In this document: positions 7,686 to 63,021 of the stretch, one piece after another | Position numbering within the stretch: position 1 is the stretch's first letter | How the letters are laid out: every line of letters begins with the position of its first letter | Virus record (IMG/VR): IMGVR_UViG_3300009169_000014 | Location: 44,741-108,740 of that record | DNA: 64,000 nucleotides | Origin: a virus | Lineage: Duplodnaviria > Heunggongvirae > Uroviricota > Caudoviricetes | Reading direction: 5' to 3' (one strand) | Notes under the pieces: generated by a model | The model's input: the letters and a program-made list of their open reading frames with translations, nothing else | What the model was told of the DNA's origin: nothing | The model's database searches: none | Translations under genes and position numbers: made by a program

Positions 7686-8135
7686 TCAGCCATCATGCAC
7701 AACATCAGAACTACGTGGAGAATCAAACGCCTTTCCAACGGCGTGTCCTACTGGCGCCAAGAACATACCGCCTCCGATTTGTCCGAAGGCTCCTAGCGGA
7801 GTTCCTAGCAAAGCTCCAGTCGTGCGCCCAAGGAAATCTCCCGTGAGCTCGCCGGCCCCAATGTCCGGATTCGCTCGAGACGCCAAGAGTGCCCCCATCA
7901 GGGGCCACGCCAAGGTAGCCGCGAGCTGCCCCGGTGACTTCGGGAGAACCTGTCCTAGAAGTCCTTTGCGCGGATGAAAGAGCTGTCCCTTCTGAAACTG
8001 CTGCCAAGCTTTCTCTGGCTGCCCGATCCCCTGGCGCTTGACCTCTTCGAGGTAGTCATCCCAACTTCCAGCGACCTTCACCCCAAAGGCGGAGAGAGCG
8101 GCACGGGCACCCGCAGTTTGTGACAGACCCCGCAT
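7686..8135 (-). CDS. Hypothetical protein (149 aa)
   Basis: Minus-strand ORF immediately upstream in coordinates of the beta-prime C-terminal gene. Its start overlaps at 8135. Confidence 0.45.
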   Translation of the reverse strand: MRGLSQTAGARAALSAFGVKVAGSWDDYLEEVKRQGIGQPEKAWQQFQKGQLFHPRKGLLGQVLPKSPGQLAATLAWPLMGALLASRANPDIGAGELTGDFLGRTTGALLGTPLGAFGQIGGGMFLAPVGHAVGKAFDSPRSSDVVHDG

Positions 8136-9934
8136 TAGTATTTGCCTTCCGGTCCCATCCCGAATTCAGAACCGTAAGCGTAGGCCGGTACCGGGTGAGT
8201 GCTATGGCGATCTGACACTGCGCCGGTACGAGCTCCCTGAAGAAGACTGTCCTTCAAGAAGCGATGAGCCAGACGGGCCATCCAGTCCGGGTGGAGCAGC
8301 GGGTTTCGCGCCATCGGCCGCATCATGAACTCGACGCGCGGAAGTGAAGAGGCCACACCAACACTGGTGACCCCGTGGGTCTTGAGGGTGTTGAGGATCG
8401 AAGGAGTAAGAGGCGTACCCGCGGTGTAGTGGAGGACCTCTTTACCCAGTACGCCGCCCACGGCGTGAGCGAGTAGCGTATCCCGACTGCCCTTCTCCGC
8501 GGCGTTCCGATACGCCTCGTAGGGGACTACTTCTCCTTTGAGGAGCTCCGGATGCTCATCTGTGTGCTCGAGAACTTTGACGTGGTTGAGGTCTGCGCGG
8601 GCGACCAATTCAAAGTGCCGCTTGTCGACGTTGACGCCTTCCCGCCCATAGATGTCATGAAGTGCGTCCACGAGGTACTGTCGTCCAACGCCAAAACCTT
8701 TGTGGTGGATGAGCTCATCTGGTTTGGGGATTCCTTCTGAGAGTACATCACCAGCTTCCACTTTCTGATGGACACGCACAAGCGGCTTCAAATTCGGCCC
8801 AACGTAGTGCTGTACCTCATTGACGTAGATATGCGTACCGCCATGGGGCGCGGGTACGATCTTCGTAACGACCCCGGTACGCTCTGCCAGCGCCGCCTTA
8901 TTGATGAAGTTCTGCGGCACCTCGAGAAGCTGCCGAACCCCCGGCATTCCAGTGAGCTGAGAAGAAGACCCCTTGATGCTCTTCCCGCCGTGCTTGGCGC
9001 TCAACGCCATCTGGGTCAAAGGCTCAGAGATCGACTGCGCGGCACGGACACCGACATTGATGCCGATTGCGTGCGGACGTCCTCGCTCATCAAGACCTTG
9101 ACACTTGCGGCAGAGGCCTGGCGTGGCCTTACACGTCATCGGCGAGCGGACATAGACCGTCTTCACTTTGTTGCGGAGGCCCGACGCAACTGCCTTCGTC
9201 ACCAAGTCGTTCCGGCGGTAACCCGCCTGATCTCTGGAGAGGTACCTATCAATGATGTTCCCATCAGTGCTGGCGAGCGCTATACCGTTCGGTGTTCCAC
9301 AGTCGTCGGCGGTAACGACCATTGGATACATCGAGTTTGTCATGATCTTGAGCATGTCGCCAGGCTCAGAGATAGAGATGGCCGCCTGCACGGTGTTGTG
9401 CCGCACATCGTTTCCAGCGGCCCAGTAGTCCGCGGAGTGGAGCCCCTCTGAATAGGAGCGGTCAACTATCCAGGGCATCGCCCGCCCTTGGCTAGACGTC
9501 ACTGTGACCGGAGAGGATACGGTCTTGGCCAGCTGCTCCATGTTGCCGCGAGCTCCTGACATCGCCATCGCGGTCATCGTGCCTGGGTGCAGCTTGGTCT
9601 GCGCCAGCATCTTCACTTTTGCGTCGAGAAGAACCTTCTCCTTTGCCGCTGAAGTAGTGGCACTTTTCAGAGCCGCGGTCGTCGCCGTGATGAGCGCATT
9701 ACGCTCTTTGTACTGCGGCGTGATGTCATCGATGCCGACGGAGACCCCTTCGAGCGTGGAGATGTCATCCCCGAGACGCTTCAGGCTGCTGACGATCTCA
9801 ACGTAGGCAGAAGGGTCCTCTCGAGCGAGGTCCAGCAGCTTCTGCGTGAGCTCTTTCTTCCCCAGCGCCCCCGTCGTGTGGAGATGCTTGGGCAGCAGGT
9901 CGTTGACCAGGTATTTCCCAAGCGTCTGCGCCAT
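8135..9934 (-). CDS. DNA-directed RNA polymerase beta-prime subunit, C-terminal portion (regions F-H: bridge helix and trigger loop)
   Basis: Matches to conserved beta-prime blocks: MAMSGARGNMEQL (SGARGS..QirQL block); TADDCGTPNGI (DDCGT block); CRKCQGLDERGRPHAIGINVGVRAAQSISEPLTQMALSAKHGGKS (CxxCYG…[25 protein letters not shown] block). Confidence 0.8.
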   Translation of the reverse strand: MAQTLGKYLVNDLLPKHLHTTGALGKKELTQKLLDLAREDPSAYVEIVSSLKRLGDDISTLEGVSVGIDDITPQYKERNALITATTAALKSATTSAAKEKVLLDAKVKMLAQTKLHPGTMTAMAMSGARGNMEQLAKTVSSPVTVTSSQGRAMPWIVDRSYSEGLHSADYWAAGNDVRHNTVQAAISISEPGDMLKIMTNSMYPMVVTADDCGTPNGIALASTDGNIIDRYLSRDQAGYRRNDLVTKAVASGLRNKVKTVYVRSPMTCKATPGLCRKCQGLDERGRPHAIGINVGVRAAQSISEPLTQMALSAKHGGKSIKGSSSQLTGMPGVRQLLEVPQNFINKAALAERTGVVTKIVPAPHGGTHIYVNEVQHYVGPNLKPLVRVHQKVEAGDVLSEGIPKPDELIHHKGFGVGRQYLVDALHDIYGREGVNVDKRHFELVARADLNHVKVLEHTDEHPELLKGEVVPYEAYRNAAEKGSRDTLLAHAVGGVLGKEVLHYTAGTPLTPSILNTLKTHGVTSVGVASSLPRVEFMMRPMARNPLLHPDWMARLAHRFLKDSLLQGARTGAVSDRHSTHPVPAYAYGSEFGMGPEGKY

Positions 9935-10926: not shown

Positions 10927-11535
10927 TTAAGGAATTGCTCCACCGCCGCCTCCTTCGCAGAACATCATGCGACGCAGATCGTCTGCATGCTGCTGGTCGG
11001 TGAAGACCATCTGTTCGAGCATGACCTTGAGCGACAGATTCTCCCCCGCCATGAGGGAGAGGTTTCGCAGCTCCTGGATGATCTGCTTCTCCGCCTGGAG
11101 CAGGACCATGAACATCTGGTGCAAGTCGTTGATGTCGGGGATGGTGCTCACCTTCGGAGTGGGCTCACCGCCCAACGCCGTGATCTTCATCGTCAGGTGG
11201 TAGGCGTCCTGACGCTCTTCGTCGGCGTGCTCTTTGAAGTGGTCGTAGATGACATCCCGGAAGTGCGCCCGGATCCGGTCACCGTAGTTGATGTACATCA
11301 TCATCATCGTGTACTTGAGCTTGAGCAGCTTCACGCACTGGCCGACGACCTTCTCCTGAGGAACTGCGAACAGCCCCTCCTCGGGAGACACCGCCAGCGG
11401 GTGAACGCCCTCCGAAGCGGTTGGCTGGGGGAGAGGAACAACAGCGCCAGCGGCTTCGGTGGCTTGGGCGTCAGGGGACTGCACCTGCTCTGGAGGCACC
11501 TCGATGCCGTCAACTGCGATCTTGTAACGAGACAT
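10927..11535 (-). CDS. Dps/ferritin-like protein with N-terminal extension (202 aa)
   Basis: …RIRAHFRDVIYDHFKEHADEERQDAYHLTMKITALGGEP… fits the Dps helix pair (lH..fee…iD.lAERi..LGG.P). Its start overlaps the RNAP stop at 11535. Confidence 0.5.
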   Translation of the reverse strand: MSRYKIAVDGIEVPPEQVQSPDAQATEAAGAVVPLPQPTASEGVHPLAVSPEEGLFAVPQEKVVGQCVKLLKLKYTMMMMYINYGDRIRAHFRDVIYDHFKEHADEERQDAYHLTMKITALGGEPTPKVSTIPDINDLHQMFMVLLQAEKQIIQELRNLSLMAGENLSLKVMLEQMVFTDQQHADDLRRMMFCEGGGGGAIP

Positions 11536-14500
11536 CAGCCCACCTCAACTTTGGTATGCAGCCCGATTTCGCCGCGCTTGTACGCGGCCATGGCATCGGC
11601 TTTGGTTTTGAACTTGTGCGTCTGCCCGTTTACGGACCCTTCGGCTTTCGTAGCCAGGTGCACGCCTAGCATAGCTTCCATGCGGGGAGCGACCATCAGG
11701 CTGTTTTGCTCGCGGTCCGAAAAGAGCAGGTTGGAGAGGGTCATTCCCTTCACCTCCGCGACGGCGGCGGGAAGAATAGGGACGTGGATCTGGAACGTGT
11801 CACCGTCGTAGTCCGCGTTCATGCCCTGTTCGATGAACGGATTCACACGGATGGTTTTGCCTGCGACGGGGACAGGGTTGGCTCCGACGAAGCCGTAACG
11901 GTGGAGCGTCGGCGCGCGGTTCACCATCACTGGACGTTCTTTGAGCTCCGCCATCATGGCGTCTCGAGCTGCCGGGTGCTTCTCGTCCAGCATCTCCTTG
12001 GCGCGAACAGCGTTGAAGCCTCGACGGATCAAGCGCCCGATGATGAACTTCCCGTACATGCCCCAGAGCATGTCTTCGGGGAGACCGATTTCGTCCATGC
12101 CCAGCGAACCGTCGGGGGCGATGGTTCCGCGGCCAGAGATGTCCTGCTGACGCTTCATGATCTTTTTCTGGAAAAAGCTGCTCTTGGGCGTCGTCTTGCC
12201 GGTGAGGTGCTCGAGCAGGCCCTTCACATTTCGCTTCTGGAGCTTGGGGTTGTCGGACTCGTGCGTGCCGACCGCAGCACCGACGGCGAGGAACAAGTTC
12301 TGGCGCAACTTGGAATGCTCATCAGGCGGGAGCACCGGCTTGTCGACCTGTGTCTGGAGGGACCGATTGTGCAGCATGAGGCTCTGATAGAGGTAGTTGG
12401 AGTCTCCGACCACGAGCTCTGAACCACTCTTCCCCGCGAGTATGGGCCGCATGATGGGCGGGAGAACAGGCATCTTCGACAACACGTAGGCATCACCAGG
12501 TCGGAGGTTCTGCTTGTCGAGGGCCTCGAGGAACTTGAGCTGCTTCACGGCGTCATCGAGCTTCACCCCGTTCAGACTCTTGATGGACGCCCGAACCTCT
12601 TTCAAGCGGGCCTTTACGTCGATCCCGTTGAGACGCTGCTTCAGCGCTGACCCTCCTGACTGGAATCGGTAAGCATCAAAGTCCTTTGATGCCATACCAA
12701 GCAGACGACGAGCTGGTTCAGCGAAAATGGGATTCACCATCGGCTCCGCGAGCTCAATGTGGCTCCACCGCGTCCCGTCGGGACCACCGGTAACAGCGGG
12801 GTCGAACAAGCCCCCGCGTTCCGGAGCCAGGTCCTTCGCACGGACCAGTTTCTCATTCTGCACGGCGCCGGCGGACATTCGCGTGATGTCGTTGTCCGTC
12901 AGCGGCATGAGCGTGCTGAGGCTTCCTCGAGTGTCCACCTTCACCCCAGCGCCGTGAAGCATGCCAATGAACTTGTCGTAGGCGAACGACGCCTTCAAAG
13001 GCGGGAGAGGCAAGCCCAGCTGTACGGCCTTCCAGAACTCATCATTCTTCTGGCTCTTGATCGACGCTGTCTCTTTCAACACGTTGCGAGCGTTATGCGC
13101 CACCAGCGCGTTGAACTCCATCTTGCCGACGGCCTTGGCGCCTTCGTCCCCGCCTTTGATGGGCTGCTGGTTGACGTCGTAGGCCCCGGTCCCACGAGCA
13201 GCGAAGTTGGTCTCTGTCGTCTTGAACAAGCGCAGCACGTACTGCGGTCCGACGAGGATGTTGGGAATCTTCTTCCCCGACACCGGGTCGAACAACGTCT
13301 CCTTGTCCTTGACTCCGTGCTCCTTCATCAGGTCCTTGGTCCACTGTACGTTGTCGCGACCGGAGAAGTTGGCAACGGCGATGGGCTTCCCCATCTTCTT
13401 AGCGACCTTGGCGACGCAGGTCTCAAGGATCTGCGCGGGGTTGATACGAGAGACGACGCCCGCCGAGGTATAGAGAACGTCGAGCGGCTTCCCCGCTTCG
13501 TCCTGGAGCATCTTGTGGTTCGGTACGATCAGGGACACGACGCCCTTATTCCCGTGACGCCCCGTGAGCTTGTCCCCGACGCGCATCGGTTCCTTGGTCC
13601 TGACAGTGACGACGACGCGCCTGTCGGTCACGTGGACGTCCATGACCTCACCCTCGAAGTCATGGTCCCAGGTCCGAACGAGCTCGCGATAGGGGTGAAC
13701 CAGTGTCTTCTTCAGATTCGACAAAAGCATGTCGGACGCGGAGAGTTTTCCACGCGTCACGCCCGCGATGAGCAGGTCGTGAGGCATCACCTTCGTGCCC
13801 TTGCGAACTACGCCGTTGGTGTCGAGCTTGCGATACTGGTCCGCCATGTACTTGGGCCCGTAGTACTGCCGATGAATCTCGCGCCCCAGAGTTGCATCGC
13901 GCTCAACCTCGAGGACCTCCTTGTACATGTGCTCGGAGGTGAGCTTGTCCGCGGCCCCTTCCGAGATGACGACGGCGTCGTTCGAGTTCATGCCGTAGTA
14001 GGGCACGTACCCGATGGTCATGTTCCGCCCCAGAGCAAAGGCACCGTCACGAGTGAAGTTCGAATCAGCTAGGCGCTGGTTCGCGTCAACGTGGTCGCCA
14101 GGCTTCACGAGTAGGTCGTGGTGAAGGTATGTCTTCGAAGCGAAGGGGAAGTTGTCCTCGTACGGGATGCGGAGGAGGTCCTTCTCCGCCGCCGCCTTCT
14201 CTCGACCGCGCTCTGAGAGGTAGTCGTCCTTGAACTCGTCCCAGGTGTACTCGGTCAACGAACCGTAGCCCCAGGGTGGACCGTGCTTCTCGTAGGCGTC
14301 CTTCGCGGCGTCCTTGGAGTCGAAGCCCACCATGCACTTGTCTTCGTCGTGCGAGCCGTCCTTCTTCCGCTGATGCACGATGTAGACGTTGTCGAACGTG
14401 CCCTCTTCCTTCAGGTAGATGTCGACGGTTTCGCCATCATCGCCAACGGTCTTGGGGATGTGGCCGTACGCCACGTACATCTTCTTCTCCCACTTTTCGC

Positions 14501-16346
14501 CCTTGTCGTTCGTCCCCGTGCGTACATCACCAGGCTCGAGCTCGATCTTCATGAGCAGGCCGTTGATGGTCTTCTGTCGTTTGACGGCGCCGCCACGCTT
14601 CTCGAACGAATTCTTCTCAATCCCAAAGTCTTCTGCGTGCTTCTTCCCAGTAGGGTCGATGTAGATGTACTGCCCGTCGACCTTCACAACCTTGCCTGCG
14701 ACGGGAGACGACGGGAGCTCCAGCATCGCGAGTGCCTTCTCCCAACTCGAGAAGACCTTGCCCGTCGCATCAGCGACACCCGACTGCACTAGGGGTGCTT
14801 CTCGGTGCACGAGCGGGAGCGCCTGCGTCATCGACTTGCCTCCCATGATGCCGCGGTTCCCCTGCACGGACTCCAAAAAGGGAACGAGGTTCGTGGCGGG
14901 AGAGTACAAGTCTGAAGCATCACTGATCTCGTGCGTAACCTCCGACCATGGAACGCGCTCCATCTTCCCGTACTTCATGACCGCGACGACCCCAAAGTGC
15001 TTCTGCCTCGGGAAGGCGACGACTGCCCGACTCATCCGCGCTGCGGACAGAAGCTCCGACTTACCGGTCTTGACGTCCCGCACCATGGAGTACAGGTTCC
15101 CCTTGGGGTCCCGGTGCGCGAACATCGAAGTACGGATGTCGATACCGGCGCGGAACGTCTCGGACGTTCGCACAGGATCAAGGATACCAAGGTGGCTCGA
15201 GTGAATCGCCCGAGCCTCGCCAGGGATTGCACGCTCGTTGGCGATGCCACCCTCGCCCAAGGAGGTCACCCGCACCGCGTGGTCAATGGCCTCCATCGGG
15301 TTGATGTGCGTTGGGATCGAGCTCAGCTGCGATCCTGTGAGGAAGCTTCGAATGCCCGCGGAAAAAGGAGAAGGCGGAAGAATGGTCCGGAGTTCCGTCT
15401 TGTGCGTGGCCCTCCCCTTCACCTTACTGGCGAGCGCCCGAGCATCCAGGGTGATGCGCTCTTTGATGAAGTCGTCGACCGAGTGGTACGTCTTGAACCG
15501 TAGAGCGTCTCGGTCGTCAGTGTCCTCGTTGTTCTTGTAGACGCTGAGGAGGCGCTTCGACGCCACCAAGAGAGACTGCGGAGTGACGCTGGAGAACTCG
15601 TGGCCCAGTGTCTCCTTGGTAACCTCAGGGTCCATCGCCGTAGCGGCGTAGGCTGTCCTGATGGCAGCGAGCTGCGACTCCGGGTCCTTTGCCATCCGCT
15701 TCGAAGGGTGCACCAGCTTCTCGTAGAGCTTCGACAGATTCTTGTCGTGCTTCCCTTCAAACGCAGACTCATTCTGCTTCGCAACGTCGGAGCCCCAGTG
15801 CGAAGAAATGTCCGTGTGTGGTACTCCCAGCTTCCGGAGTACTGAGTAAAGTGGAATGGACGTCGTGCCGTACTCGATGTACGGATGCCCCTGCGTCGGA
15901 TCCATCGACAGCCGGAAGTTGGACCCCTTCGACAAGTTGAAGGCGGCCTCCAGATCTTCGTTGCCGCGGCGACGGGTGTATACGCCCGGCTTCAGACGGA
16001 GTTGGTTAGAGACGTTGTACTCGTTGCCGTCCAAGATGAAGGTGTGCCGCCCCGTGAAGTAGGGCAGGTTAAGCAGAGTGAAGTTCTTTACCCGCTCGAG
16101 CTCCTTCCCGTCGGCCCCCCGGAGGATGACCGTCCCCTTCACAGGCTCAAAAAGAGACCCACCGCTGAGCAAAGCGCTCTTCTGATCGTGCGGACCGAAG
16201 TCCCTCTCGTGCACCTTGAGATCAACGACCTCGATTTTCTTGTCCCGAAGTGGAAGGGGAAAAGCTGTACGCAGCGCATCAAGCGCTTTCGAGCGGATTT
16301 GAATCCGCCGCGACTCGGGGTCGGTCATCACAGGCGTGAGCTGCAT
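11535..16346 (-). CDS. DNA-directed RNA polymerase, fused beta subunit plus beta-prime N-terminal portion (through the catalytic NADFDGD region)
   Basis: Beta motifs: MRVGDKLTGRHGNKGVVS (GDK…GRHGNKGV) and KAVGKMEFNALVAHNARNVLKE (GGQRFGEMEVWALEAYGAA). Beta-prime N-terminal motifs: WSHIELAEPMVNP (GHIELA.PV), VLPPIMRPIL…LYQSLMLHNRSL, and NADYDGD at 11797-11817, followed by 87 aa to the stop. The track ORF extends to 17171, but the first 275 aa are Arg-rich junk. The real start is proposed at the ATG at 16346 (MQLTPVMTDPESRRIQIRSK…). Confidence 0.85.
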   Translation of the reverse strand: MQLTPVMTDPESRRIQIRSKALDALRTAFPLPLRDKKIEVVDLKVHERDFGPHDQKSALLSGGSLFEPVKGTVILRGADGKELERVKNFTLLNLPYFTGRHTFILDGNEYNVSNQLRLKPGVYTRRRGNEDLEAAFNLSKGSNFRLSMDPTQGHPYIEYGTTSIPLYSVLRKLGVPHTDISSHWGSDVAKQNESAFEGKHDKNLSKLYEKLVHPSKRMAKDPESQLAAIRTAYAATAMDPEVTKETLGHEFSSVTPQSLLVASKRLLSVYKNNEDTDDRDALRFKTYHSVDDFIKERITLDARALASKVKGRATHKTELRTILPPSPFSAGIRSFLTGSQLSSIPTHINPMEAIDHAVRVTSLGEGGIANERAIPGEARAIHSSHLGILDPVRTSETFRAGIDIRTSMFAHRDPKGNLYSMVRDVKTGKSELLSAARMSRAVVAFPRQKHFGVVAVMKYGKMERVPWSEVTHEISDASDLYSPATNLVPFLESVQGNRGIMGGKSMTQALPLVHREAPLVQSGVADATGKVFSSWEKALAMLELPSSPVAGKVVKVDGQYIYIDPTGKKHAEDFGIEKNSFEKRGGAVKRQKTINGLLMKIELEPGDVRTGTNDKGEKWEKKMYVAYGHIPKTVGDDGETVDIYLKEEGTFDNVYIVHQRKKDGSHDEDKCMVGFDSKDAAKDAYEKHGPPWGYGSLTEYTWDEFKDDYLSERGREKAAAEKDLLRIPYEDNFPFASKTYLHHDLLVKPGDHVDANQRLADSNFTRDGAFALGRNMTIGYVPYYGMNSNDAVVISEGAADKLTSEHMYKEVLEVERDATLGREIHRQYYGPKYMADQYRKLDTNGVVRKGTKVMPHDLLIAGVTRGKLSASDMLLSNLKKTLVHPYRELVRTWDHDFEGEVMDVHVTDRRVVVTVRTKEPMRVGDKLTGRHGNKGVVSLIVPNHKMLQDEAGKPLDVLYTSAGVVSRINPAQILETCVAKVAKKMGKPIAVANFSGRDNVQWTKDLMKEHGVKDKETLFDPVSGKKIPNILVGPQYVLRLFKTTETNFAARGTGAYDVNQQPIKGGDEGAKAVGKMEFNALVAHNARNVLKETASIKSQKNDEFWKAVQLGLPLPPLKASFAYDKFIGMLHGAGVKVDTRGSLSTLMPLTDNDITRMSAGAVQNEKLVRAKDLAPERGGLFDPAVTGGPDGTRWSHIELAEPMVNPIFAEPARRLLGMASKDFDAYRFQSGGSALKQRLNGIDVKARLKEVRASIKSLNGVKLDDAVKQLKFLEALDKQNLRPGDAYVLSKMPVLPPIMRPILAGKSGSELVVGDSNYLYQSLMLHNRSLQTQVDKPVLPPDEHSKLRQNLFLAVGAAVGTHESDNPKLQKRNVKGLLEHLTGKTTPKSSFFQKKIMKRQQDISGRGTIAPDGSLGMDEIGLPEDMLWGMYGKFIIGRLIRRGFNAVRAKEMLDEKHPAARDAMMAELKERPVMVNRAPTLHRYGFVGANPVPVAGKTIRVNPFIEQGMNADYDGDTFQIHVPILPAAVAEVKGMTLSNLLFSDREQNSLMVAPRMEAMLGVHLATKAEGSVNGQTHKFKTKADAMAAYKRGEIGLHTKVEVG

Positions 16347-16430
16347 GTCCGTAAGTATAGCCCTGAAATTGGTATTAGTAGTTGAGCCCCACTGACGGGG
16401 CTTTGACGCAGTACCACGCGAGGGGAACAA

Positions 16431-24872: not shown

Positions 24873-25706
24873 CTACTCCGCGAAAACGTCCCTGGTGGCT
24901 GATACGTGATTGGCCACCAGGTACATTTTCAACTGCGCCATCGTATTTTTCTTGATCTGCCGTACCCGCTCAGAGGATAGGTCCAAGCGGTTCGAAATTT
25001 GTCGGAGGTTCTTAGGATCCTCCCGTGCTCCGAAGTACGCCAGCACGATGTACTTGTCTCGCTCCCGTAGGGCGAGCTCATCCAGGGCCTGCCGCAGAAG
25101 TGTAAAGCCGTATGTGTTCACGAAGTCCCGCTCAAGGACATCGTCGCTGTGCCCAGCCGCGTCGATGGACTCCACGGTGTCCAGCGTCACATGAGGAGCT
25201 TCAACGTCCGTCCCACTACCGTGCTTTCGCTGAGCGCGCAGGGCCTTCTGCTTGTGCGCTGGGACACGAATGATCCCCTGACTGTCGAGCTCTTCCAGAA
25301 TCTTCTCTCGGACCCACCAAGCGGCGTACGTCAAAAACTTGGTGTTTCGGGAGGAGTCAAAACGATCCGCGGCGACAAGCAGTCCGATGTTACCGGCGGA
25401 GATGAGAGTAGTAAGAACGTCGTTGTCGAAGTTGGGCCCCTTCGTACGGTAGGCGTACTCTTTGGCGACCTTCACGACGAAACGAAGAGCGCCGGAGATG
25501 AGACGGTCACGGGCCTTAAAGTTGCGAGGAGCCTTGCACTTGGCGCAATGCGTGGCTGAAGACCCAAGGGCGTATGACGCACGGCACGAGGGGCAGGTAC
25601 GGTAGCTCTTGACGAGTTCCTGCTCTTCCTTCTGGGGAATGAACACGTTACCGCGTAAATCGGTGAAGTAGGCCGCGATGACACGGTCGTTATCGGTCGA
25701 GCTCAT
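24873..25706 (-). CDS. Sigma-70 family RNA polymerase sigma factor (regions 2 and 4) with zinc-ribbon insertion
   Basis: Region 2-like: VVKVAKEYAYRTKGPNFDNDVLTTLISAGNIGLLVAADRFDSSRNTKFLTYAAWWVREKI. Region 4 HTH: LSSERVRQIKKNTMAQLK. The N-terminal CPSCRA…CAKCK is a Zn-ribbon-like insertion. It is the only minus-strand gene within the + strand block. Confidence 0.7.
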   Translation of the reverse strand: MSSTDNDRVIAAYFTDLRGNVFIPQKEEQELVKSYRTCPSCRASYALGSSATHCAKCKAPRNFKARDRLISGALRFVVKVAKEYAYRTKGPNFDNDVLTTLISAGNIGLLVAADRFDSSRNTKFLTYAAWWVREKILEELDSQGIIRVPAHKQKALRAQRKHGSGTDVEAPHVTLDTVESIDAAGHSDDVLERDFVNTYGFTLLRQALDELALRERDKYIVLAYFGAREDPKNLRQISNRLDLSSERVRQIKKNTMAQLKMYLVANHVSATRDVFAE

Positions 25707-25828
25707 TCCCTAATGATCCTCGCTTTTGCACTTGAAACACGCCCTACGAAGCGGTAGGGTCGCCGCGCCAAAAACAACATCTCTTAAGCACAAAACCTAC
25801 AAACCCGCAAAAACAATGGAGTACAGCA

Positions 25829-26884
25829 ATGGCCAAGAAGCCCGACGCAACCCCTGCCACTGAAGCACCCGCAGCACCGGAAGCTGCTCCCACTGCCGCT
25901 CCCGCTGAAACCACCGCTCTCGCTACCGCCGAGAGTGTCTCTCCGGAGTTCGCGGCGCGCAAGGCCCTGGCGAACCGGCTCCCTCCCGAAGTCCGAGCGA
26001 AGGCGATGATGCTCAAGCGCCCCACTCCCATGGAGCTCATGGACATCGTCATGGCGCTCCCGGAGGCCAGCCAAGAAGCAATGATGACGCTGGTTTCCAA
26101 GACCAACCCGGAGAAGCAGGGCCTGCACTCGTCCACCAGCGGATTCGAACCTACGGAACTCAAGGTGTTCCACGGCGTCGGCAATGACCCCACCAGGCCG
26201 CGTCAGTGCCTGCCGGGGCAGTTCTACTCGAAGGACTCCCGCGTTCTCGGGGAGAAGTTCAACGCGGTCCCCCTCGCCATCTACGAGGGCCAGATCCTCT
26301 GGCCGCCGCAGACGCCGGGAAGCAACGAGAGCAAGGCGCCTCTCTGCGTCTCGATGGACCGGAGGACCGGGAGCAAGTACGGCTCCTGCGCTTCCTGCCC
26401 TCTCGCCCCGGAGCTCCGTCCGTACACCCAGGGCGGCTGCATGCGGGAGATCACCGCCTACCTGCTGGACCAGGACATGACGTCCATCTACGTCTTGAAG
26501 TTCGCCAAGACCAGCGAAGGCGCTGGCAAGGCGATGATGGGCATCCTCAAGAAGTCGAACACGCTGTGGGACCGGTGGTTCACCTTCGAGGCCAAGGAGC
26601 GCGTCGACGGGACCAAGAAGTACTACGTCCTGCAGGCCAGCCCGGTGGCTGACGCTGCGAAGGCGAACACCGACGCGAAGTTCCACCCGCTGTTCACGTC
26701 CCTGTCGAAGGTCATCGACGCCGACATCTACTACCCGGCGCTCGCTGGTGTGCACGACAGGCTGAAGAACAGCGCAGAAGCTGGCGGCGCCGCCGCAACG
26801 GGCGCGGCAGCCGTACCGTTCGACGAGAAGGCGTTCCTCAAGGGCGACACCGAGGCTGCGCCGGACTACTCCAAGGACGTCTGA
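25829..26884 (+). CDS. Hypothetical protein (351 aa) with Ala/Pro-rich N-terminus. Possible DNA-binding or annealing partner of the flanking nucleases
   Basis: ORF preceded by a purine-rich RBS. The globular core has conserved Cys residues (CLPGQ, CVSMD, CASCP, GGC). No Walker motif. The functional guess is from gene context only. Confidence 0.4.
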   Translation: MAKKPDATPATEAPAAPEAAPTAAPAETTALATAESVSPEFAARKALANRLPPEVRAKAMMLKRPTPMELMDIVMALPEASQEAMMTLVSKTNPEKQGLHSSTSGFEPTELKVFHGVGNDPTRPRQCLPGQFYSKDSRVLGEKFNAVPLAIYEGQILWPPQTPGSNESKAPLCVSMDRRTGSKYGSCASCPLAPELRPYTQGGCMREITAYLLDQDMTSIYVLKFAKTSEGAGKAMMGILKKSNTLWDRWFTFEAKERVDGTKKYYVLQASPVADAAKANTDAKFHPLFTSLSKVIDADIYYPALAGVHDRLKNSAEAGGAAATGAAAVPFDEKAFLKGDTEAAPDYSKDV

Positions 26885-26936: not shown

Positions 26937-27797
26937 GTGCCGATGCGGGGCTCCTGCAATGTCGGGGAGCCTCCATCGGTTTACTCGTCGACCTTTGGTG
27001 ACCCCATGGATCTAGTCATCCCTGAGTATGTTCAAAAAAACGGTCCGTGGTCTTTCTCCAAGGCCGGGGTCATCTCGAAGTGCTCGCTGCAGTACGACTA
27101 CAAGTACGGCGCGCAGAAGCGGCCAGAGGAGCCTCGAGCGTCATCTGAGGACAGCCGCATCGGCGTCGCCGTGCACAAGGCGCTCGAGTTCGCGCTCGAC
27201 AACATCCCCACCAAGAAGGCGTTCCAGTTCGCCATCGACCAAGGGGAGTTGACCACGGACGAGAGTGAGAAGGTGATGAGCTTCTTCGACCAGGTGGATC
27301 GGTTCGTGAAGCGCATCGCAGCCTTCAAGGAGAAGCACGGGGTTCGCCCACAGAACGTACTCATCGAGTACAAGATCGGAATGGGCGCGGACTTCAAGAG
27401 CTGCCAGTTCTTCGACAAGACCGGGCTCTTCCGCGGCGTACTCGACTTCACCATGCTCACAGCGCGTGGGGACGCGGTCGTCATCGACCACAAGTCGGGC
27501 AAGCAGAAGGACATGAAGCACTACGAAGACCAGTGCAAGGCCTACTGCGTCCTGGCGCTGGCATTCCGTCCTGAGCTCAAAGGCGTACAGACGGCCATCA
27601 ACTTCGTTCAAACGGATCAGCTGCTGTGGAACCCCCGCGTCACGGCGGAGACAATCCGCAACGAGTACCACCCGTGGCTCGTCAAGTTTCTCGCAGACTC
27701 CTGTGCCGGTCTCCAGAAACCCCCTGAGCCCCAAGAGGGCTGGTGGTGTGACTGGTGCGGGTACAAGGGGGTCTGTCCCAAGTTCACCAACAAATAG
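26937..27797 (+). CDS. Second PD-(D/E)XK nuclease, Cas4/RecB-like, with C-terminal CxxC-x5-C
   Basis: …GVLDFTMLTARGDAVVIDHKSGKQKD… parallels the motif of the first nuclease (ID..K(S/T)GK). The C-terminus is WWCDWCGYKGVCPKF. Start may be GTG at 26937 or ATG at 27006. Confidence 0.6.
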   Translation: MPMRGSCNVGEPPSVYSSTFGDPMDLVIPEYVQKNGPWSFSKAGVISKCSLQYDYKYGAQKRPEEPRASSEDSRIGVAVHKALEFALDNIPTKKAFQFAIDQGELTTDESEKVMSFFDQVDRFVKRIAAFKEKHGVRPQNVLIEYKIGMGADFKSCQFFDKTGLFRGVLDFTMLTARGDAVVIDHKSGKQKDMKHYEDQCKAYCVLALAFRPELKGVQTAINFVQTDQLLWNPRVTAETIRNEYHPWLVKFLADSCAGLQKPPEPQEGWWCDWCGYKGVCPKFTNK

Positions 27798-27805
27798 GAG
27801 TGCTC

Positions 27806-30778
27806 ATGCCGAAGCCGCATGCGTGCTGTGCGGGGTGCCCGCGGGAAAACCCCACGAGCACGCACTCGCACGGGTACGCTGTTTCGCCCATTGCCTCTGA
27901 CGCAAACCTCATCATCATCGCAGAGAATCCCGTCTGCGACCGCTACGGAAAATTCTCCACAGCGTTCGACGATGACAGCGGAAAGATCATCAAGAAGGCT
28001 GTCGCGGAGCTGAAGAGACGTGAAGAGTACCGCGGGCTGAAAGTCGCCTACAGCTACGCAGTCCGCTGCACCTGCAACCAAGGGGATAAAGAGCCCCCGA
28101 AAGCAGTGCTGGAGAAGTGCAGGACAATTCTCCAAGAGGAGCTCACCCTCACACGACAGAAGCCCGTCCTCTTGCTCATGGGGATGACTGCGCTCCGTGC
28201 CCTCGATATCAAGGCAGCGAAGCTGAGGGACATGCAGGGGCGTTTGCTCTCCCAGCAGGTTGTGGGCAACATCTTGACCGGGGAGCAGCGCTTCGACACG
28301 GTCATCACCATCTCGACGAAGCAGTTGGTCGCCGTCCCAGGGCTCTACACAACGTTCACAGCCGACCTTCAAAGGGCCGCGGACGCTGCTCGCTCTGGGG
28401 GGCTCTCCACCGTACCTGCGCTCGACGCGCTGACGAAGAACTACCGCCTCCCGACGACAGTCGAAGAGGTCAGGGCGGTCTGCCAAGAGATCCTCAACTA
28501 CGCGGAAGGAAACGTAGCGCCAGAGAACTGGCCCATCTCAGTGGACACGGAGACCAACACCAAGTTTCCGCACAGAGACAAGCTGAAGGTGCTGGCGGTC
28601 TCTTTCGCGTGGGCAGAGGGGAAGGCGACGGCTATCCCGCTGTGGCACCCAGAGGTCCAGTACGACCCGAAGGAGGTCGTGCCGTACATCCTCGAAGTAC
28701 TGAAGAGCAAGAAGCCGAAGTTCTTCCACAACGCCAAGTTCGACCTCAAGGTGTTCATGAAGGTCGGGTGGGAGTTGGTCAACTTCATCTGGGACAGCAT
28801 GACTGGCGAGCATGCGCTCGAGGAAGACAAGAAGGGCCAGTACGGCTTGAAGCCGCTGACCCGGACCAACTTTCCGGACTTCGCTTCGTACGCAGACTCC
28901 CTGCACGAGATCCTCACAAAGGAAGAGGGGGACTCGCAGCTCCACAACCTCCGTAAGGTGCTCAAAGCCACCGTCACGGGCGGTCGGAAGAAGAAGGCGG
29001 GAACAGAGAATGATGGCGGGTTCGAAAAGATTCCGCTGGCCACACTGATGCTCTACGCGGCGGTCGACGCGGACATGACTCGAAGGCTCGTCTACCTCCA
29101 AGAAAAGAGAATCCTCGCGGAACAGAACACCGTGATTGGGACCCAAAACCGAACGGTGCGAGAGCAGGCGCTGGCTGCATCGGGAAAGCAGAAACTGGAA
29201 GAACGGGCGCGGCCCAACACAGAGGAGCTGGATGCGATGATGAAGCATCCCGTTGCTCACCCGATCCCCAAGCTCTGTGACGCTGAGCGGCCTGTTCGGC
29301 GATTGGCGCTGAAGAACATCTTCCCCGTCACTCCTTCCCTCGCGGCCATGGAGTTCAGGGGGATTCGCATCGACCGCCCCTACCTCACGACGCTACAAGC
29401 GGACCTGGGGAAGGTGGTGCAAGAAGCCACGGAACAGCTGTACGCCATGGCGGGCGGGGAGCTCAAGCTCAACAGTCCCGCGGAGATTGCGCGGGTCTTG
29501 TTCGACACGGGGTTCACGCACCCCGACACGCAGGTGCTGACGCGGTACCCGCTAGCGGGCATCTCGAAGACAAAGACGGGGCAGACACAGACTACCGAGA
29601 AGGTCATGCAGTTCCTGGTGGCACGGTACGGATGCCCCTTTGCGTCCAAGAAGCTGATCTACGCCAAAGCGTTCAAGGCGAAGAACACCTTCTGTCAGAA
29701 CGTGGCGGACCTCTCAGAGCTCGATGGGTACCTGCACACCAACTACAACCAGCACGGCACGTCTACGGGGCGGCTCTCATCCAACGATGAGAACATGCAG
29801 AACATCCCGAAGAAGCTGGCGGGCGTGAACATCAAGAAGGTGTTCATCCCAGACGACGACTCGTACCTTTTCGTCAACGCGGACGCAAAAGGCGCAGAGG
29901 TCCGAATCCTCACGGCCTACTGCAAAGACCAAGCGTTGATTGACTCACTGAACGCAGGGCAGGACACGCACTGCTTCATCGCTTCAAAGATCGTGGAGAT
30001 CGTACGCCAGAGTCCGGGCGCTGCTGACGTGCTGGCCAGCATGAACCTGGACGACCAGTACCTTCTGACGTACGACGACTTCGCCAACAGAGGGAAGATC
30101 GAGAACACGAACGCGAAGTACGGAAAGATGCTGGACAAGTTCCGAACGGCGGTGAAGCGCGTTGTGTTCGGGATCTTGTACGGCGCGGGACCTCAGAAAA
30201 TCGCGGAGACAATTGGTATCAGCTTGGGACAGGCCCAACAACTCATCGACATGCTGTTCACACTGTTCCCATCGATCAAAACGTACATGGCCCAGACGAA
30301 ATGGGAGCTGCAGACGTTTGGATTCGTGGAGACGTTCTTCGGACGCCGCCGTCGTTTTAGCGTCATCGGTGCGCCCAAGTACCTCATGGGCAAAGCCGAA
30401 CGACAGACTGTGAACTTCAAGATTCAGAGCACGAGCTCTGACATCGTCATGGGGCGCTTGGTAGCGCTCGAAGGTCCCCTTCGGGACATGGGTGGGCGGC
30501 ACCTGCTGACCGTGCACGACAGCCTCGGTTTTCAGATCCTCAAGAAGTACGCCTCGCAACTGCCGGACTTCATCTATACGCACCTCGAGAAGGGCGCGGC
30601 TGACCAACATCCCTGGCTTCCTGTCGCCTTCAAGTGGGACTACGAAGTCGGCCCGTCATACGGAGAACTCAAGTCACTCGATGCTTACCTAGAAAATATC
30701 GCGATCAAGGAGTACTCAAACGATGCCGCCGAAGCCTACACGGAGGAAGAAGTCCGGACCGCGCTTGCCGAAGTTTAA
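27806..30778 (+). CDS. Family A DNA polymerase (PolA-like) with N-terminal uracil-DNA-glycosylase-like domain
   Basis: An AGGAG RBS lies 5 nt before the ATG at 27806. N-terminus: CAGCPRE…ANLIIIAENPV (UDG family 4-like GEAPG-type motif). Pol motifs: motif A FVNADAKGAEVRILTAYCKD (DYSQIELR-like), motif B RTAVKRVVFGILYGAG (RRxxKxxNFGxxYG), motif C LLTVHDSLGFQ. A 3'-5' exo-like region lies between. Confidence 0.85.
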   Translation: MPKPHACCAGCPRENPTSTHSHGYAVSPIASDANLIIIAENPVCDRYGKFSTAFDDDSGKIIKKAVAELKRREEYRGLKVAYSYAVRCTCNQGDKEPPKAVLEKCRTILQEELTLTRQKPVLLLMGMTALRALDIKAAKLRDMQGRLLSQQVVGNILTGEQRFDTVITISTKQLVAVPGLYTTFTADLQRAADAARSGGLSTVPALDALTKNYRLPTTVEEVRAVCQEILNYAEGNVAPENWPISVDTETNTKFPHRDKLKVLAVSFAWAEGKATAIPLWHPEVQYDPKEVVPYILEVLKSKKPKFFHNAKFDLKVFMKVGWELVNFIWDSMTGEHALEEDKKGQYGLKPLTRTNFPDFASYADSLHEILTKEEGDSQLHNLRKVLKATVTGGRKKKAGTENDGGFEKIPLATLMLYAAVDADMTRRLVYLQEKRILAEQNTVIGTQNRTVREQALAASGKQKLEERARPNTEELDAMMKHPVAHPIPKLCDAERPVRRLALKNIFPVTPSLAAMEFRGIRIDRPYLTTLQADLGKVVQEATEQLYAMAGGELKLNSPAEIARVLFDTGFTHPDTQVLTRYPLAGISKTKTGQTQTTEKVMQFLVARYGCPFASKKLIYAKAFKAKNTFCQNVADLSELDGYLHTNYNQHGTSTGRLSSNDENMQNIPKKLAGVNIKKVFIPDDDSYLFVNADAKGAEVRILTAYCKDQALIDSLNAGQDTHCFIASKIVEIVRQSPGAADVLASMNLDDQYLLTYDDFANRGKIENTNAKYGKMLDKFRTAVKRVVFGILYGAGPQKIAETIGISLGQAQQLIDMLFTLFPSIKTYMAQTKWELQTFGFVETFFGRRRRFSVIGAPKYLMGKAERQTVNFKIQSTSSDIVMGRLVALEGPLRDMGGRHLLTVHDSLGFQILKKYASQLPDFIYTHLEKGAADQHPWLPVAFKWDYEVGPSYGELKSLDAYLENIAIKEYSNDAAEAYTEEEVRTALAEV

Positions 30779-31064
30779 GCCGATTCAGGACGACATCCTC
30801 GACGAATGGAAGGACACCCTCGTAAAGGTGTTCACGGTGACAGGGGGATGCTTGACGGGGCGACTCATCAAGTATGACCACAAGTCACTGATCATTTCAC
30901 CCAAAACCTGTGTGCAGCGGAAGCACATAGTCTCGCTGTACCAGGCCAACAATGCTCCCGACAAACAAGCCGCAGGACCTGCTGTTCGTGGACACCGAAA
31001 CGACGGGGCTCGACCCCACGAAACACGAGCTGCTGGAAGTCGCAGCGATTCGAACGAGTCCTGA
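30723..31064 (+). CDS. Doubtful small ORF overlapping the PolA end and the DnaQ start
   Basis: The first about 75 aa are protein-like (…DDILDEWKDTLVKVFTVTGGCLTGRLIKYDHKSLIISPKT…). The tail is Arg/Gly-rich and overlaps the DnaQ gene in another frame. Confidence 0.2.
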   Translation: MPPKPTRRKKSGPRLPKFKPIQDDILDEWKDTLVKVFTVTGGCLTGRLIKYDHKSLIISPKTCVQRKHIVSLYQANNAPDKQAAGPAVRGHRNDGARPHETRAAGSRSDSNES

Positions 31065-31524
31065 CGGGAAGACCGTCATCAAGACGTACGAAGCAAAGCT
31101 GAAGCCGCTCCACCTCGAGACTGCGGAGCCGAAAGCTCTCCAGGTCAACAACTACAAGCCTGAGGAGTGGACGGACGAGAAGTGCGTGAAGCCTGAGCTC
31201 GTTGTGGATGCGCTTCAGCAGATGGCGGGCAACACGGTGCTGGTCGGACAGAACGTCTCGTTCGACGAGGGCTTCCTCACGCCGCTCTTCACGAGGCTGA
31301 AGATGAAGGCCCCCTGGGGCTACCACAAGGTCGACACGGTGGCGCTGGCCTGGCCGCTGTTCTGCTACACGGGGCTGCCCGGACTGAGCCTCGAGAAGCT
31401 GTGTACGTTCCTCGGAGTCACTGAGATGCCGAAGCACCGAGCGATGGCCGACGCTGAGGCCTGTCGCCAGGTGTACTTGAGTATAATGGGGCGCTGGACA
31501 GCGGTAGTGGCGCCTACGAAGTAA
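30952..31524 (+). CDS. DnaQ-like DEDDh 3'-5' exonuclease
   Basis: Exo I motif LLFVDTETTGLDP at the N-terminus. Exo III-like …HRAMADAEAC… near the C-terminus. Confidence 0.8.
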   Translation: MLPTNKPQDLLFVDTETTGLDPTKHELLEVAAIRTSPDGKTVIKTYEAKLKPLHLETAEPKALQVNNYKPEEWTDEKCVKPELVVDALQQMAGNTVLVGQNVSFDEGFLTPLFTRLKMKAPWGYHKVDTVALAWPLFCYTGLPGLSLEKLCTFLGVTEMPKHRAMADAEACRQVYLSIMGRWTAVVAPTK

Positions 31525-31529
31525 ACGCT

Positions 31530-45568: not shown

Positions 45569-45725
45569 AGTGGCCCCAGTATAGGTGTTGCCTCAGTGGA
45601 GTAGAAGCAGTAAGAAGCTTTCCCCCTGGACGTCTATCACCGTCCACCCCAAATTCACAGAAGGCCGAAAGGCCTCCCCGCTGAGCGTGTGATAGCGCTC
45701 GCGGGGGTAGTTTGTTCGGAGCCCC

Positions 45726-62013: not shown

Positions 62014-63021
62014 GTTCCTCGACAGGAAGTGGTGCGCCAGCGCTGCCGCGGTTGCTGTGGCCCCGAGAGCCAGCGCTGCCTTGGGAGCGACGCGCCGGAT
62101 CCCCGCAGCACGGCGGTTCTTCACGAGAGCTTGGACCGCCGCGTCGGTCGCCTTGACGCCGCCGACAGCGCCAGCAGCTCCGCCGAGAACACCGCCTGCG
62201 CCACCGCCCAAGATAACTCCAGGGATCCAGGGTGCACTTCCTTCGACCCCGCGAACGGCCCGTACCCCGGCAAGGGCACCCAGCGGCGCTCCAGCGCCTA
62301 CTCCAGCAGCCCCTCCGCTGATCCCGCCCAGGATCTTCGCAGCCAGGGGCGTCTTCATGGGAGCAACTTTCCCCCACACGTCGGCCATAGAATCAGCGTA
62401 GTCCGCTTCCTTGGTAGGCTCGTCGACCTTCGACAGGAAGTGATGCGCCAGGGCCGCAGCTGTAGCCGTAGCGCTGAGCCCCAACCCTAGACGGGTCGTC
62501 GCACGGCGTTCGCTTCGAACGGCCTGCCGTTTGATGTGGGTGGTTAGGGCAGGAATCCCGAATCGTCCAGCCACGGAGCCCGCGGCAGCCCCGCCGTAGT
62601 ACCCGATGGCGCTTCGAGCCCCCGGCGAGAGTTTCAGCTTGTCTCCGGGGCGTGCCCCGGCGGGTGCCTTTGTCTTCGGCGCGGCGGGGCGTCCGTCGTG
62701 CTTGGTCATCGCCCTTGTAGAGATGTCCTTCTCCGCCGCCGGCGGGTGCGACATCGTGTGGAGCGTAGGATCGGTCATGTCGCCGATAAGCGATCCCGCC
62801 AAGGAGCCGAGGCCTCCGCCCATCGCGCCGCCGTAGCTTTTCAGGAGACTGTGAGCTCCTGGGTCGAGGCGCGTGGGTGACGCTTTCTCCCAGCGATCCA
62901 GCAGCTTGTTCTCGAGGTCCGTGTACCCGGCGTTCTTGAAGAACGTTGCCGCAGCATCGCCCCGTCCAAGGGAGTAGAAGTCCATGGGCGAAGTATAGGC
63001 GCTACTTTGCGACGTAGACAC
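62005..63021 (-). CDS. Gly/Ala-rich hypothetical protein (338 aa). Third member of the (N/D)FYxLGxRD family, with an internal duplicated LGxxATAAALAHHFLS(K/R)xDE module
   Basis: N-terminus …MDFYSLGRGDAAATFFKNAGYTD, compared with MNFYGLGQRDAFEKF. The C-terminal repeats are …LGLSATATAAALAHHFLSKVDE… and …LGATATAAALAHHFLSRNDE. Glycine-zipper-like segments are present. Confidence 0.45.
   Translation of the reverse strand: MSTSQSSAYTSPMDFYSLGRGDAAATFFKNAGYTDLENKLLDRWEKASPTRLDPGAHSLLKSYGGAMGGGLGSLAGSLIGDMTDPTLHTMSHPPAAEKDISTRAMTKHDGRPAAPKTKAPAGARPGDKLKLSPGARSAIGYYGGAAAGSVAGRFGIPALTTHIKRQAVRSERRATTRLGLGLSATATAAALAHHFLSKVDEPTKEADYADSMADVWGKVAPMKTPLAAKILGGISGGAAGVGAGAPLGALAGVRAVRGVEGSAPWIPGVILGGGAGGVLGGAAGAVGGVKATDAAVQALVKNRRAAGIRRVAPKAALALGATATAAALAHHFLSRNDE

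Follow-up and report, generated by a model that had tools for sequence, protein, structure and literature searches.

T4 gp55 and SPO1 gp28 and gp33/34 switch promoter class by reprogramming the RNA polymerase (RNAP) of the host. They are phage-encoded proteins of the sigma family with a role in promoter-class switching, as are the 'group 2' sigmas of jumbo phages (PMC7824862), and the phages that carry any of these factors encode no multisubunit polymerase. Other phages do encode such an enzyme. The proteins gp68 of phiKZ and gp226 of AR9, which belong to non-virion RNAPs, have been proposed as functional analogues, in the sense that each is a phage specificity factor for a phage multisubunit core (PMC13282480). 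However, they have no recognisable sigma-70 similarity, and each of their cores is made up of 4-5 separate, highly divergent polypeptides. Two reviews, by Iyer et al. in 2021 (PMC7824862) and from 2026 (PMC13282480), describe, on the one hand, phage multisubunit polymerases without sigma homologues and, on the other hand, sigma-encoding large phages without polymerases, which presumably use the host enzyme.

Here, we analyzed a stretch of 64,000 nucleotides from an uncultivated phage (positions 44,741 to 108,740 of the IMG/VR record IMGVR_UViG_3300009169_000014; hereafter the window, with positions counted from its first letter). The window is phage DNA, since it has a terminase large subunit gene at 32368-33984 and a portal homologue at 17829-19559. 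It encodes a sigma-70-family protein at 24873..25706, on the minus strand, with a predicted zinc-ribbon (Zn-ribbon) insertion, and it also encodes a multisubunit RNAP. In contrast to phiKZ and AR9, the sigma and the core are both readily recognisable as bacterial-type, and unlike the sigmas of T4, SPO1, and the 'group 2' phages, this one is co-inherited with a multisubunit polymerase.

Among described phage proteins, the sigma of the window has an ortholog in Gp196 of Salmonella phage Arash (OQ632216; PMC10585845). Gp196 was annotated as 'RNA polymerase sigma factor RpoS' in a genome paper where beta, beta', and two sigmas were named without further analysis (PMC10585845). It is likewise a lone opposite-strand gene among helicase and nuclease genes beside a portal-RNAP module, and the two proteins have in common an AAGN/SAGN helix 2.2 and the motif LTYA(G/A)WW. 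However, Gp196 is devoid of a Zn-ribbon, its region 4.2 is divergent, and a segment resembling sigma3.1 is still present. The best profile and fold matches are cellular sigmas of groups 1 and 2 (RpoS, SigB and SigA of M. tuberculosis, HrdB of Streptomyces, and sigma70 of E. coli), which share with the window sigma regions 1.2 and 2.1-2.4, a region 3.0 helix, an acidic 3.2 linker, and region 4. The window sigma differs from them by the lack of region 1.1 and sigma3.1, by the Zn-ribbon at the non-conserved region, and by the presence of SAGN instead of QEGN or EEGN.

The sigma factor and its zinc-ribbon insertion

The sigma gene is an open reading frame (ORF) of 277 amino acids (aa) with an ATG start. 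Its coordinates match exactly those of an initial annotation made from the sequence alone, which had described a phage sigma-70-family factor with a Zn-ribbon insertion and regarded it as a likely partner of the phage RNAP. The codon-position GC content of the ORF (0.59/0.41/0.71 for GC1/2/3) is coding-like, and the same 277-aa protein (P0001, 100% identical) was called independently on other assemblies. The two motifs quoted in the initial annotation, FLTYAAWWVREKI and LSSERVRQIKKNTMAQLK, are both found in the protein. Profile searches identified Sigma70_r2 of Pfam (PF04542; 35.7 bits at aa 101-143, cut-off 24) and Sigma70_r4 (PF04545; 37.0 bits at aa 213-260, cut-off 24.1). The sigma-70 superfamily model of NCBIfam (TIGR02937) scored 76 bits against a cut-off of 42.9, and PHROG 351 ('RNA polymerase sigma factor') matched at 1e-30. 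We built two alignments of homologues, one of 24 sequences (down to 45% identity) and one of 91 sequences, and the profile of the latter matched RpoS at 1.5e-27 when searched against solved structures.

The predicted structure points in the same direction. When the AlphaFold2 (AF2) model was compared with the PDB using Foldseek, each of the top 50 matches was either the chain of a sigma factor or a model that contains one (E~1e-8, probability 1.0). Most came from holoenzymes and initiation complexes, and the best ones were actinobacterial SigA/HrdB, SigB, and RpoS. Because the profiles of regions 2 and 4 are both present and the fold is that of a sigma, not of an anti-sigma or of an unrelated helix-turn-helix (HTH) regulator, the membership in the sigma-70 family proposed by the initial annotation stands. 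In contrast, the NCBIfam equivalog models for RpoS, RpoD, RpoH, FliA, and SigK all scored far under their cut-offs, with 67-94 bits for the RpoS and RpoD equivalogs against cut-offs of 354-555 (94 against 379 for RpoS). As no equivalog cut-off was reached, the protein lies outside every named cellular orthologous group. A search of GenBank phages for near-identical DNA gave no match. These results show that 24873..25706 encodes a bona fide sigma-70-family protein outside the named orthologous groups. Judging from the sequence and the structural model, a functional sigma-70-family initiation factor is the best explanation for this gene product.

The alignments and the model give the following predicted order of domains: region 1.2, Zn-ribbon, sigma2, region 3.0 helix, acidic 3.2-type linker, and sigma4. 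The AF2 model, which was computed from an alignment, has a mean predicted local distance difference test (pLDDT) of 77.9 and is very confident (85-95) for residues 21-140. The region 1.2-like helices span aa ~8-36 (25599..25685, minus strand, as for all the domains below) and correspond to AF2 helices at 2-18 and 25-36. The family profile alignments to solved structures cover this region, from aa 9-177 for M. tuberculosis SigB and from aa 8-153 for SigA, and the residues Y13, E28, and Y35 are invariant in the 91-sequence alignment. Sigma domain 2, with regions 2.1-2.4 (aa 62-148; 25263..25523), contains the Pfam match to region 2 and has 39% identity to residues 374-455 of E. coli sigma70. Its core-binding helix is LISAGNIGLL, and its promoter-melting motif FLTYAAWWVREKI pairs with FSTYATWWIRQAI of E. 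coli sigma70 (Y430, W433, W434, R436). The sigma2 residues S103, N106, T126, Y127, A128, and W131 do not vary among the 91 homologues, and the conservation of W130 reaches at least 90%.

The second half of the protein is reduced relative to cellular sigmas. A region 3.0-like helix (aa 150-161) and an acidic 3.2-like linker (aa 162-188) together occupy 25143..25262. AF2 predicts a single helix at 150-161, followed by a disordered acidic stretch at 166-187. In or next to this linker, E192 is invariant, and conservation of at least 90% is seen for D182 and D188. Region 1.1 and sigma3.1 are absent from the protein; the missing sigma3.1 helices appear as a gap of ~29 columns relative to region 3.1 of E. 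coli sigma70, and Pfam gave no Sigma70_r3 match in the sigma protein, i.e., no complete sigma3. Sigma domain 4 (aa 189-265; 24912..25142) contains the Sigma70_r4 match, has a pLDDT of ~79-89, and carries the HTH LSSERVRQIKK, of which the region 4.2 helix is the sigma70-like SERVRQI.

The Zn-ribbon insert covers aa 37-61 (25524..25598) and consists of C38-x2-C41-x12-C54-x2-C57, followed by an invariant R61. All four Cys are invariant in the 24 homologues. The same holds for C38, C54, and C57 in the larger alignment of 91 sequences, where the conservation of C41 is 90% or more. AF2 models the segment as four short strands with a pLDDT of 92-95. The curated Zn-ribbon profiles matched weakly (Pfam DZR with E=0.14 and 12.8 bits against 27.3, Zn_ribbon_4 with E=0.46), and the call thus rests on Cys conservation and on the AF2 model. 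Short ribbons often fail curated Zn-ribbon models. On these grounds, the four-Cys element is a predicted Zn-ribbon. It is placed between regions 1.2 and 2.1, which is the position of the non-conserved region in group 1 sigmas. Since the sigmas of Arash (Gp196) and of Vibrio phage D69 align straight across the 1.2/2.1 junction without any ribbon, the element is a genuine insertion by comparison with the closest orthologs from cultured phages, in agreement with the initial annotation.

A profile search of 1.84 billion cluster representatives retrieved 86 clusters at E<=1e-30. The pattern CxxC...CxxC is carried by 18 of the top 150 cluster representatives, which comprise the single-ribbon form, a sister group of double-ribbon proteins of ~335 aa, and 3 proteins where the ribbon comes after region 2.2. 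The sigmas of this sister clade (P0271-P0283; L012 10001-11014) have three to four CxxC pairs in their double Zn-ribbon. In the literature that we searched, we found no description of a Zn-ribbon at such a position of a sigma factor, be it single or double. Archaeal TFB and eukaryotic TFIIB are initiation factors that pair a Zn-ribbon with HTH promoter-binding domains, but the likeness is an analogy only, since the ribbon of TFB is N-terminal and docks near the RNA exit channel, whereas that of the window sigma follows region 1.2. We propose that the ribbon may add a contact either to the beta' clamp or to the DNA just upstream of the -10 element.

The phage polymerase and the control of the sigma gene

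Pfam domains and alignments to the E. coli proteins confirm that the beta and beta' genes listed in the initial annotation are real and that the phage encodes a bacterial-type multisubunit RNAP. The large subunit (11535..16346, minus strand; 1603 aa) is beta fused to the N-terminal part of beta', with Pfam matches to Rpb2_3, InPase, Rpb2_6, Rpb1_1, and Rpb1_2. The mechanical ORF of 1878 aa at this place is over-extended, as the database homologue P0121 is 100% identical at 1603 aa. The other subunit is the C-terminal part of beta' (8135..9934, minus strand; 599 aa), identified by Pfam Rpb1_5 and by 34% identity to Arash Gp216. The two proteins are ~28% identical to those of E. coli, over positions 127-1295 of beta and 175-550 and 573-1331 of beta' (without SI3). 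The catalytic motif NADxDGD is kept as NADYDGD in the large subunit, and the phage polymerase is, from its sequence, bacterial-type and predicted to be catalytically intact. The N-terminal Zn-binding domain of beta' (C70/C72/C85/C88 in E. coli) is deleted and the beta/beta' junction (aa 1440-1500 of the ORF) is Cys-free. The second Zn site of beta' is retained, in the separate beta'C protein. The phage RNAP keeps both sigma docking elements, namely the clamp-helix hairpin and the flap-tip LLxxL segment. The phage beta' residues aligned to E. coli R275 and E295, which we take from the mutagenesis literature to be important for sigma70 binding, differ. We found no homologues of alpha, omega, anti-sigma factors, or a second sigma within the window. 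The self-contained transcription apparatus put forward in the initial annotation is therefore no more than a possibility, since neither alpha nor omega was found there.

Two features of the polymerase locus deserve a separate mention. The InPase domain (PF18823, 110 bits; ~aa 588-707 of 1603) is inserted in beta between the segments that match E. coli beta 709 and 763, and in related phages a GNAT acetyltransferase, inteins, or nothing is found at or near this site. A built-in module for the removal of pyrophosphate inside an RNA polymerase appears to be previously undescribed. The two RNAP subunit genes are separated by a gene encoding a ferritin-like protein (10927-11535, minus strand; PF00210, 42 bits).

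A protein search of GenBank phages showed that Salmonella phage Arash (180.8 kb) has the same fused RNAP, with 36.5% identity and 91% coverage, as do Vibrio phages D69, D148, and D181 (~187 kb). The window is collinear with Arash across the portal, RNAP, beta'C, structural genes, helicase, sigma, nuclease, and terminase. The phage, with a genome of ~187 kb, belongs to a large lineage of ~180-197-kb phages with Arash and D69 as cultured members, and the two-polypeptide RNAP (beta-beta'N fusion and beta'C) sits in the virion gene module of this lineage. Mass spectrometry of Arash virions detected the fused subunit Gp206 more than any other protein (3516 spectra), together with Gp216 (beta'C) and the sigma-family protein Gp10 at 100% coverage, while the second sigma, Gp196, is missing from the virion table (PMC10585845). 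Gp196 is the Arash ortholog of the window sigma, to which it is 41.6% identical over region 2 (E=2.7e-18), and it occupies the same genomic slot. The similarity of the window sigma to Gp10 is not meaningful. Since the sigma of Arash virions is Gp10, whereas the ortholog of the window sigma is not in the virion table, the sequence relationships make it more likely that the latter is a second-stage sigma. The sigma and the fused RNAP were found together in every lineage sampled (the window and L001, L006, the contig of L003, the P0184 clade, L012, Arash, and D69), at RNAP identities down to 36%. At least 5/7 of the sigma-bearing contigs larger than 100 kb equal an RNAP-bearing contig in length.

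Between 19662 and 31524, the sigma gene is the only credible one on the minus strand, as the initial annotation had noted. The sole other candidate, an ORF of 59 aa at 30785-30964, was ruled out by its non-coding GC pattern. The order of the block is SNF2 helicase, PD-(D/E)XK nuclease, ParB, sigma, an unknown 351-aa gene, a PD-(D/E)XK/Cas4-like nuclease, a uracil-DNA-glycosylase-exonuclease-PolA fusion, and an RNase T-like exonuclease. The lone opposite-strand slot is kept in L003, L004, and L006 (sigmas 47-51% identical), in the P0184 clade, whose RNAP has no InPase, and in L012, which represents the double-ribbon sister clade and has an intein-bearing fused RNAP nearby. In the slots of these relatives, the 3' end of the sigma gene abuts or overlaps its convergent neighbour and a fused RNAP is nearby. 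The antisense placement is not universal, since the sigma gene of Vibrio phage D69 is co-directional with its neighbours. PHROG gave no match for ten conserved neighbours of the sigma and RNAP genes, including 17829-19559 (the portal homologue), 6319-7677, 3556-6210, and 25829-26884; the gene divergent from the sigma is one of the ten.

The comparison of four loci revealed a conserved bipartite element upstream of the sigma gene, CTACC-N17-TCAAGTG (25729..25757, minus strand). In its general form, CTACC-N17/18-(T/G)CAAG(T/G)G, the CTACC half is identical in the 4 divergent loci (sigmas 47-100% identical) and the rest is near-identical. We rejected the hypothesis that it represents a dispersed class of promoters, as it is single-copy in the window and unconserved in the sister clade. 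At the other end of the gene, we identified a 13-bp hairpin with flanking A- and U-tracts (24891..24921), a candidate bidirectional terminator located inside the last ~16 codons of the sigma, 19 nt beyond the stop of ParB. With a free energy of -32.9 kcal/mol (z=-3.4), it was matched in stability by 0/200 shuffles. The hairpin is confined to the close lineage and unconserved in distant relatives. It looks like a bidirectional terminator common to the convergent ParB and sigma genes. Because the lone opposite-strand placement is conserved and the gene has its own upstream element and a terminator-like hairpin, the locus fits a separate, stage-specific control of the sigma, which is in line with the separate regulation suggested by the initial annotation.

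The window also contains promoter-like motifs. We identified 4 copies of CTAC-N15-18-TATACT, each of them on the minus strand, where shuffled sequences gave an expectation of 0.21. CTAC is present at 4/7 of the TATACT sites, which has a probability of ~1e-6 according to our own binomial estimate from base frequencies. The copy CTACT-N17-TATACT (16354..16381, minus strand) lies 7 nt upstream of the ATG of the RNAP gene (16346) and is a candidate promoter for a leaderless mRNA. Two other copies are similarly close to start codons: CTACT-N16-TATACT (45578..45604, minus strand), 9 nt upstream of the ATG at 45568, and CTACG-N15-TATACT (62992..63017, minus strand), 6 nt upstream of the ATG at 62985, a start that was confirmed by an independent gene call (product of 326 aa). 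The fourth copy is at 31480-31507 (minus strand). At the three former sites, the start codon is 6-9 nt downstream and the genes are in or near the virion module; such spacing is the geometry that leaderless mRNAs would have. L006, whose RNAP is 66% identical, keeps GGGC-TATACT-N6-ATG at its RNAP gene. Since the window sigma retains the residues that read a -10 element of the type TAnnnT, it is a candidate reader of the TATACT promoters, and the primary sigma of the host is likewise a candidate. A scan for canonical TTGACA/TATAAT promoters between 19 and 34.5 kb gave 1 site against 2.9 expected.

The initial annotation had suggested searching for a promoter consensus that matches repeated 38-nt boxes at 31.5-32.0 kb. 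These boxes are real, but they are 43 nt long, occur at 31539, 31732, and 31926 (spacing of 193-194 nt), and are found nowhere else in the window, for which reason we rejected them as a dispersed promoter consensus. They head three tandem units of ~193 nt (31525-32112), where each near-identical box has two small hairpins and is followed by a hairpin centred on GCCTAGC, whose stem changes are compensatory between copies. A fourth copy of the unit is found at ~32308. The units lie in a non-coding gap of 843 nt between the convergent exonuclease and terminase genes, and the sequence TGAGTATAAT at 31478-31487 is directed into them. Rfam gave no match for the tandem units, and the Rfam and tRNA scans of the whole window were empty. 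The units may represent a pac/centromere-like site, small RNAs, or small ORFs that have decayed.

Which core the sigma factor serves

The reading that we favour, with moderate confidence, is that the sigma appears after infection and redirects the core polymerase that the phage itself encodes. Its expression would depend on a promoter of its own, on the strand opposite to the rest of the replication block. The protein would then bind the phage-encoded core, with its sigma2 domain at the clamp helices of beta' and its sigma4 domain at the flap tip of beta. As a result, the core would turn from early promoters to those of a later class, plausibly the promoters with a TATACT-type -10 element before genes of the virion module, that of the polymerase included. 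We are led to it by the lineage-wide co-occurrence of sigma and RNAP, the co-purification of Gp10 in Arash, the sequence of helix 2.2, and the altered positions corresponding to R275 and E295 of beta'. The co-purification of a sigma-family protein with the Arash polymerase is, by analogy, consistent with the use of sigmas by such a core. Helix 2.2 is LIAAGNEGLL in Arash and LYNAGCEGLA in D69, whereas the cellular forms are LIQEGNIGLM (E. coli sigma70) and LIEEGNLGLI (Pseudomonas RpoS). In the nearest 150 clusters, SA or AA is found 68 times and QE 5 times. The form (S/A/N)AG(N/C), to which the LISAGNIGLL of the window also belongs, is common to three distant lineages: a Salmonella phage, a phage from a seawater/oyster sample, and the window phage (~60% GC). 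A derived surface shared across different hosts and sources is what is expected for a co-inherited partner.

Several observations weigh against this reading. The clamp helices and the flap tip are universal in multisubunit polymerases and do not discriminate between partners, and the conservation of the clamp-helix surface is 0.59 against an average of 0.66 for the protein. In the textbook view, phage sigmas work with the host core, and phage N4 carries a virion polymerase, yet uses the host polymerase later. The sequence TATACT fits any group-1-like sigma, that of the host included, and the CTAC/TATACT motifs are unconserved in the sister clade. A search with a hidden Markov model for a second sigma resembling Gp10 found none in the window, in the 10 kb past each of its edges (L015, L016; ~84 kb in total), or in the loci of the relatives. 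Hence, a cascade of two sigmas is an extrapolation from Arash. The sigma in the Arash virion preparations, Gp10, is not the ortholog of the window sigma, and the authors of that study cautioned that abundant non-structural proteins might contaminate the preparation (PMC10585845).

The most serious alternative, which we regard as possible but less probable, is that the sigma redirects the host core to middle or late phage promoters, as do T4 gp55 and SPO1 gp28/gp33-34, whereas the phage RNAP acts only early and with another specificity factor. This is the standard role of phage sigma-70 homologues (PMC7824862, PMC13282480), and it would suit a protein whose closest matches are cellular group 1/2 sigmas, which keeps the aromatic residues for -10 melting and the sigma70-like 4.2 helix SERVRQI, and whose ortholog is not the sigma that co-purifies with the polymerase in Arash virions. 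However, helix 2.2 shifts in the same manner away from QEGN/EEGN in phages of very different hosts and sources, which would be unexpected if the sigma were fitting the beta' of each host. Furthermore, the sigma is co-inherited with the phage polymerase across a deep divergence, down to 36% RNAP identity, and we recognised no factors for the takeover of the host RNAP in the window.

It is unlikely that the protein is instead the sole general sigma of the phage polymerase, used at all stages, possibly packaged, and without a partner of the Gp10 type. One sigma was detectable in the ~84 kb formed by the window and its flanks, one was found per locus of the relatives, and the database search with Gp10 recovered only close relatives of Arash, all of which would agree with a single factor. 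However, these ~84 kb are part of a genome of ~187 kb, of which ~100 kb remain, the Arash ortholog is missing from the virion table, and the separate strand and unique promoter suggest stage-specific expression. We regard as very improbable that the protein is not an initiation factor at all and acts as a decoy derived from a sigma, as an inhibitor that blocks host transcription in the manner of an anti-sigma, or simply as an HTH regulator. The absence of region 1.1 and of most of sigma3 and the presence of an unusual Zn module would agree with such a role, but ECF (extracytoplasmic function) sigmas function without sigma3, and sigma2 and sigma4 are intact. Conservation extends to Y127, W130/W131, the 3.0 helix, the acidic linker of region 3.2, and the recognition helix of region 4.2, and the top structural matches are all sigmas within holoenzyme structures.

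If the sigma serves the phage's own core, one can conceive a broader, and in our view rather doubtful, scheme where the lineage, widespread and for the most part uncultivated, has an orthogonal transcription system of bacterial type. Such a system would consist of a beta-beta'N and beta'C core (with the beta' Zn-binding domain lost, and alpha and omega not found in the window), dedicated sigma-70 factors, and the ribbon-bearing sigma for a specific stage, with a holoenzyme insulated from the sigmas and the core of the host. Within this scheme, the ribbon would contact the phage clamp or the spacer DNA, possibly compensating for the missing zinc module of beta'.

Other features of the window and significance of the lineage

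The remaining observations concern other parts of the window. The family A DNA polymerase of the block (27755-30778, plus strand) has an N-terminal domain of the uracil-DNA-glycosylase superfamily fused to the exonuclease and polymerase domains. Relatives have a DnaG-type primase-helicase of ~1140 aa just upstream of PolA, which is not there in the window phage; the latter has instead a PrimPol (48603-49739) and a VapE-like helicase (49816-51813). Downstream of a reverse transcriptase gene (41372-42568, plus strand; RVT_1, 55.6 bits), no ORF is convincing over ~1.4 kb, and we found no pair of template and variable repeats of at least 40 nt typical of a diversity-generating retroelement near the gene, which may belong to such an element, be retron-like, or be of another type. 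Lastly, there is a direct repeat of 68 nt (71% identity) at 36551-36618 and 36943-37010, 392 nt apart. The first copy covers the 5' end of a minus-strand gene (36004-36618), and both copies read ATGAACTTCTAC... on the minus strand, which points to the duplication of a gene start or to a small ORF that is a paralogue.

While the sigma-70 family itself is well known, the novelty of this locus lies in a Zn-ribbon insert that is undescribed in the literature searched and in a reduced sigma3, in a factor tied to a phage-encoded core of bacterial type. A lineage with both such a core and sigma-70 factors breaks the either/or division drawn in the reviews cited above. The genomes of these phages, at ~180-197 kb, are just below the 200-kb threshold that defines jumbo phages, which may be the reason why surveys missed them. 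The existence of cultured members, Arash and D69, makes the association between sigma and core directly testable. If the sigma does serve the phage core, the two would form the first canonical pair of sigma and core that a virus encodes. The lineage would then provide a natural minimal holoenzyme, apparently devoid of alpha, omega, and the beta' zinc domain, and possibly a ready-made orthogonal transcription module for synthetic biology.

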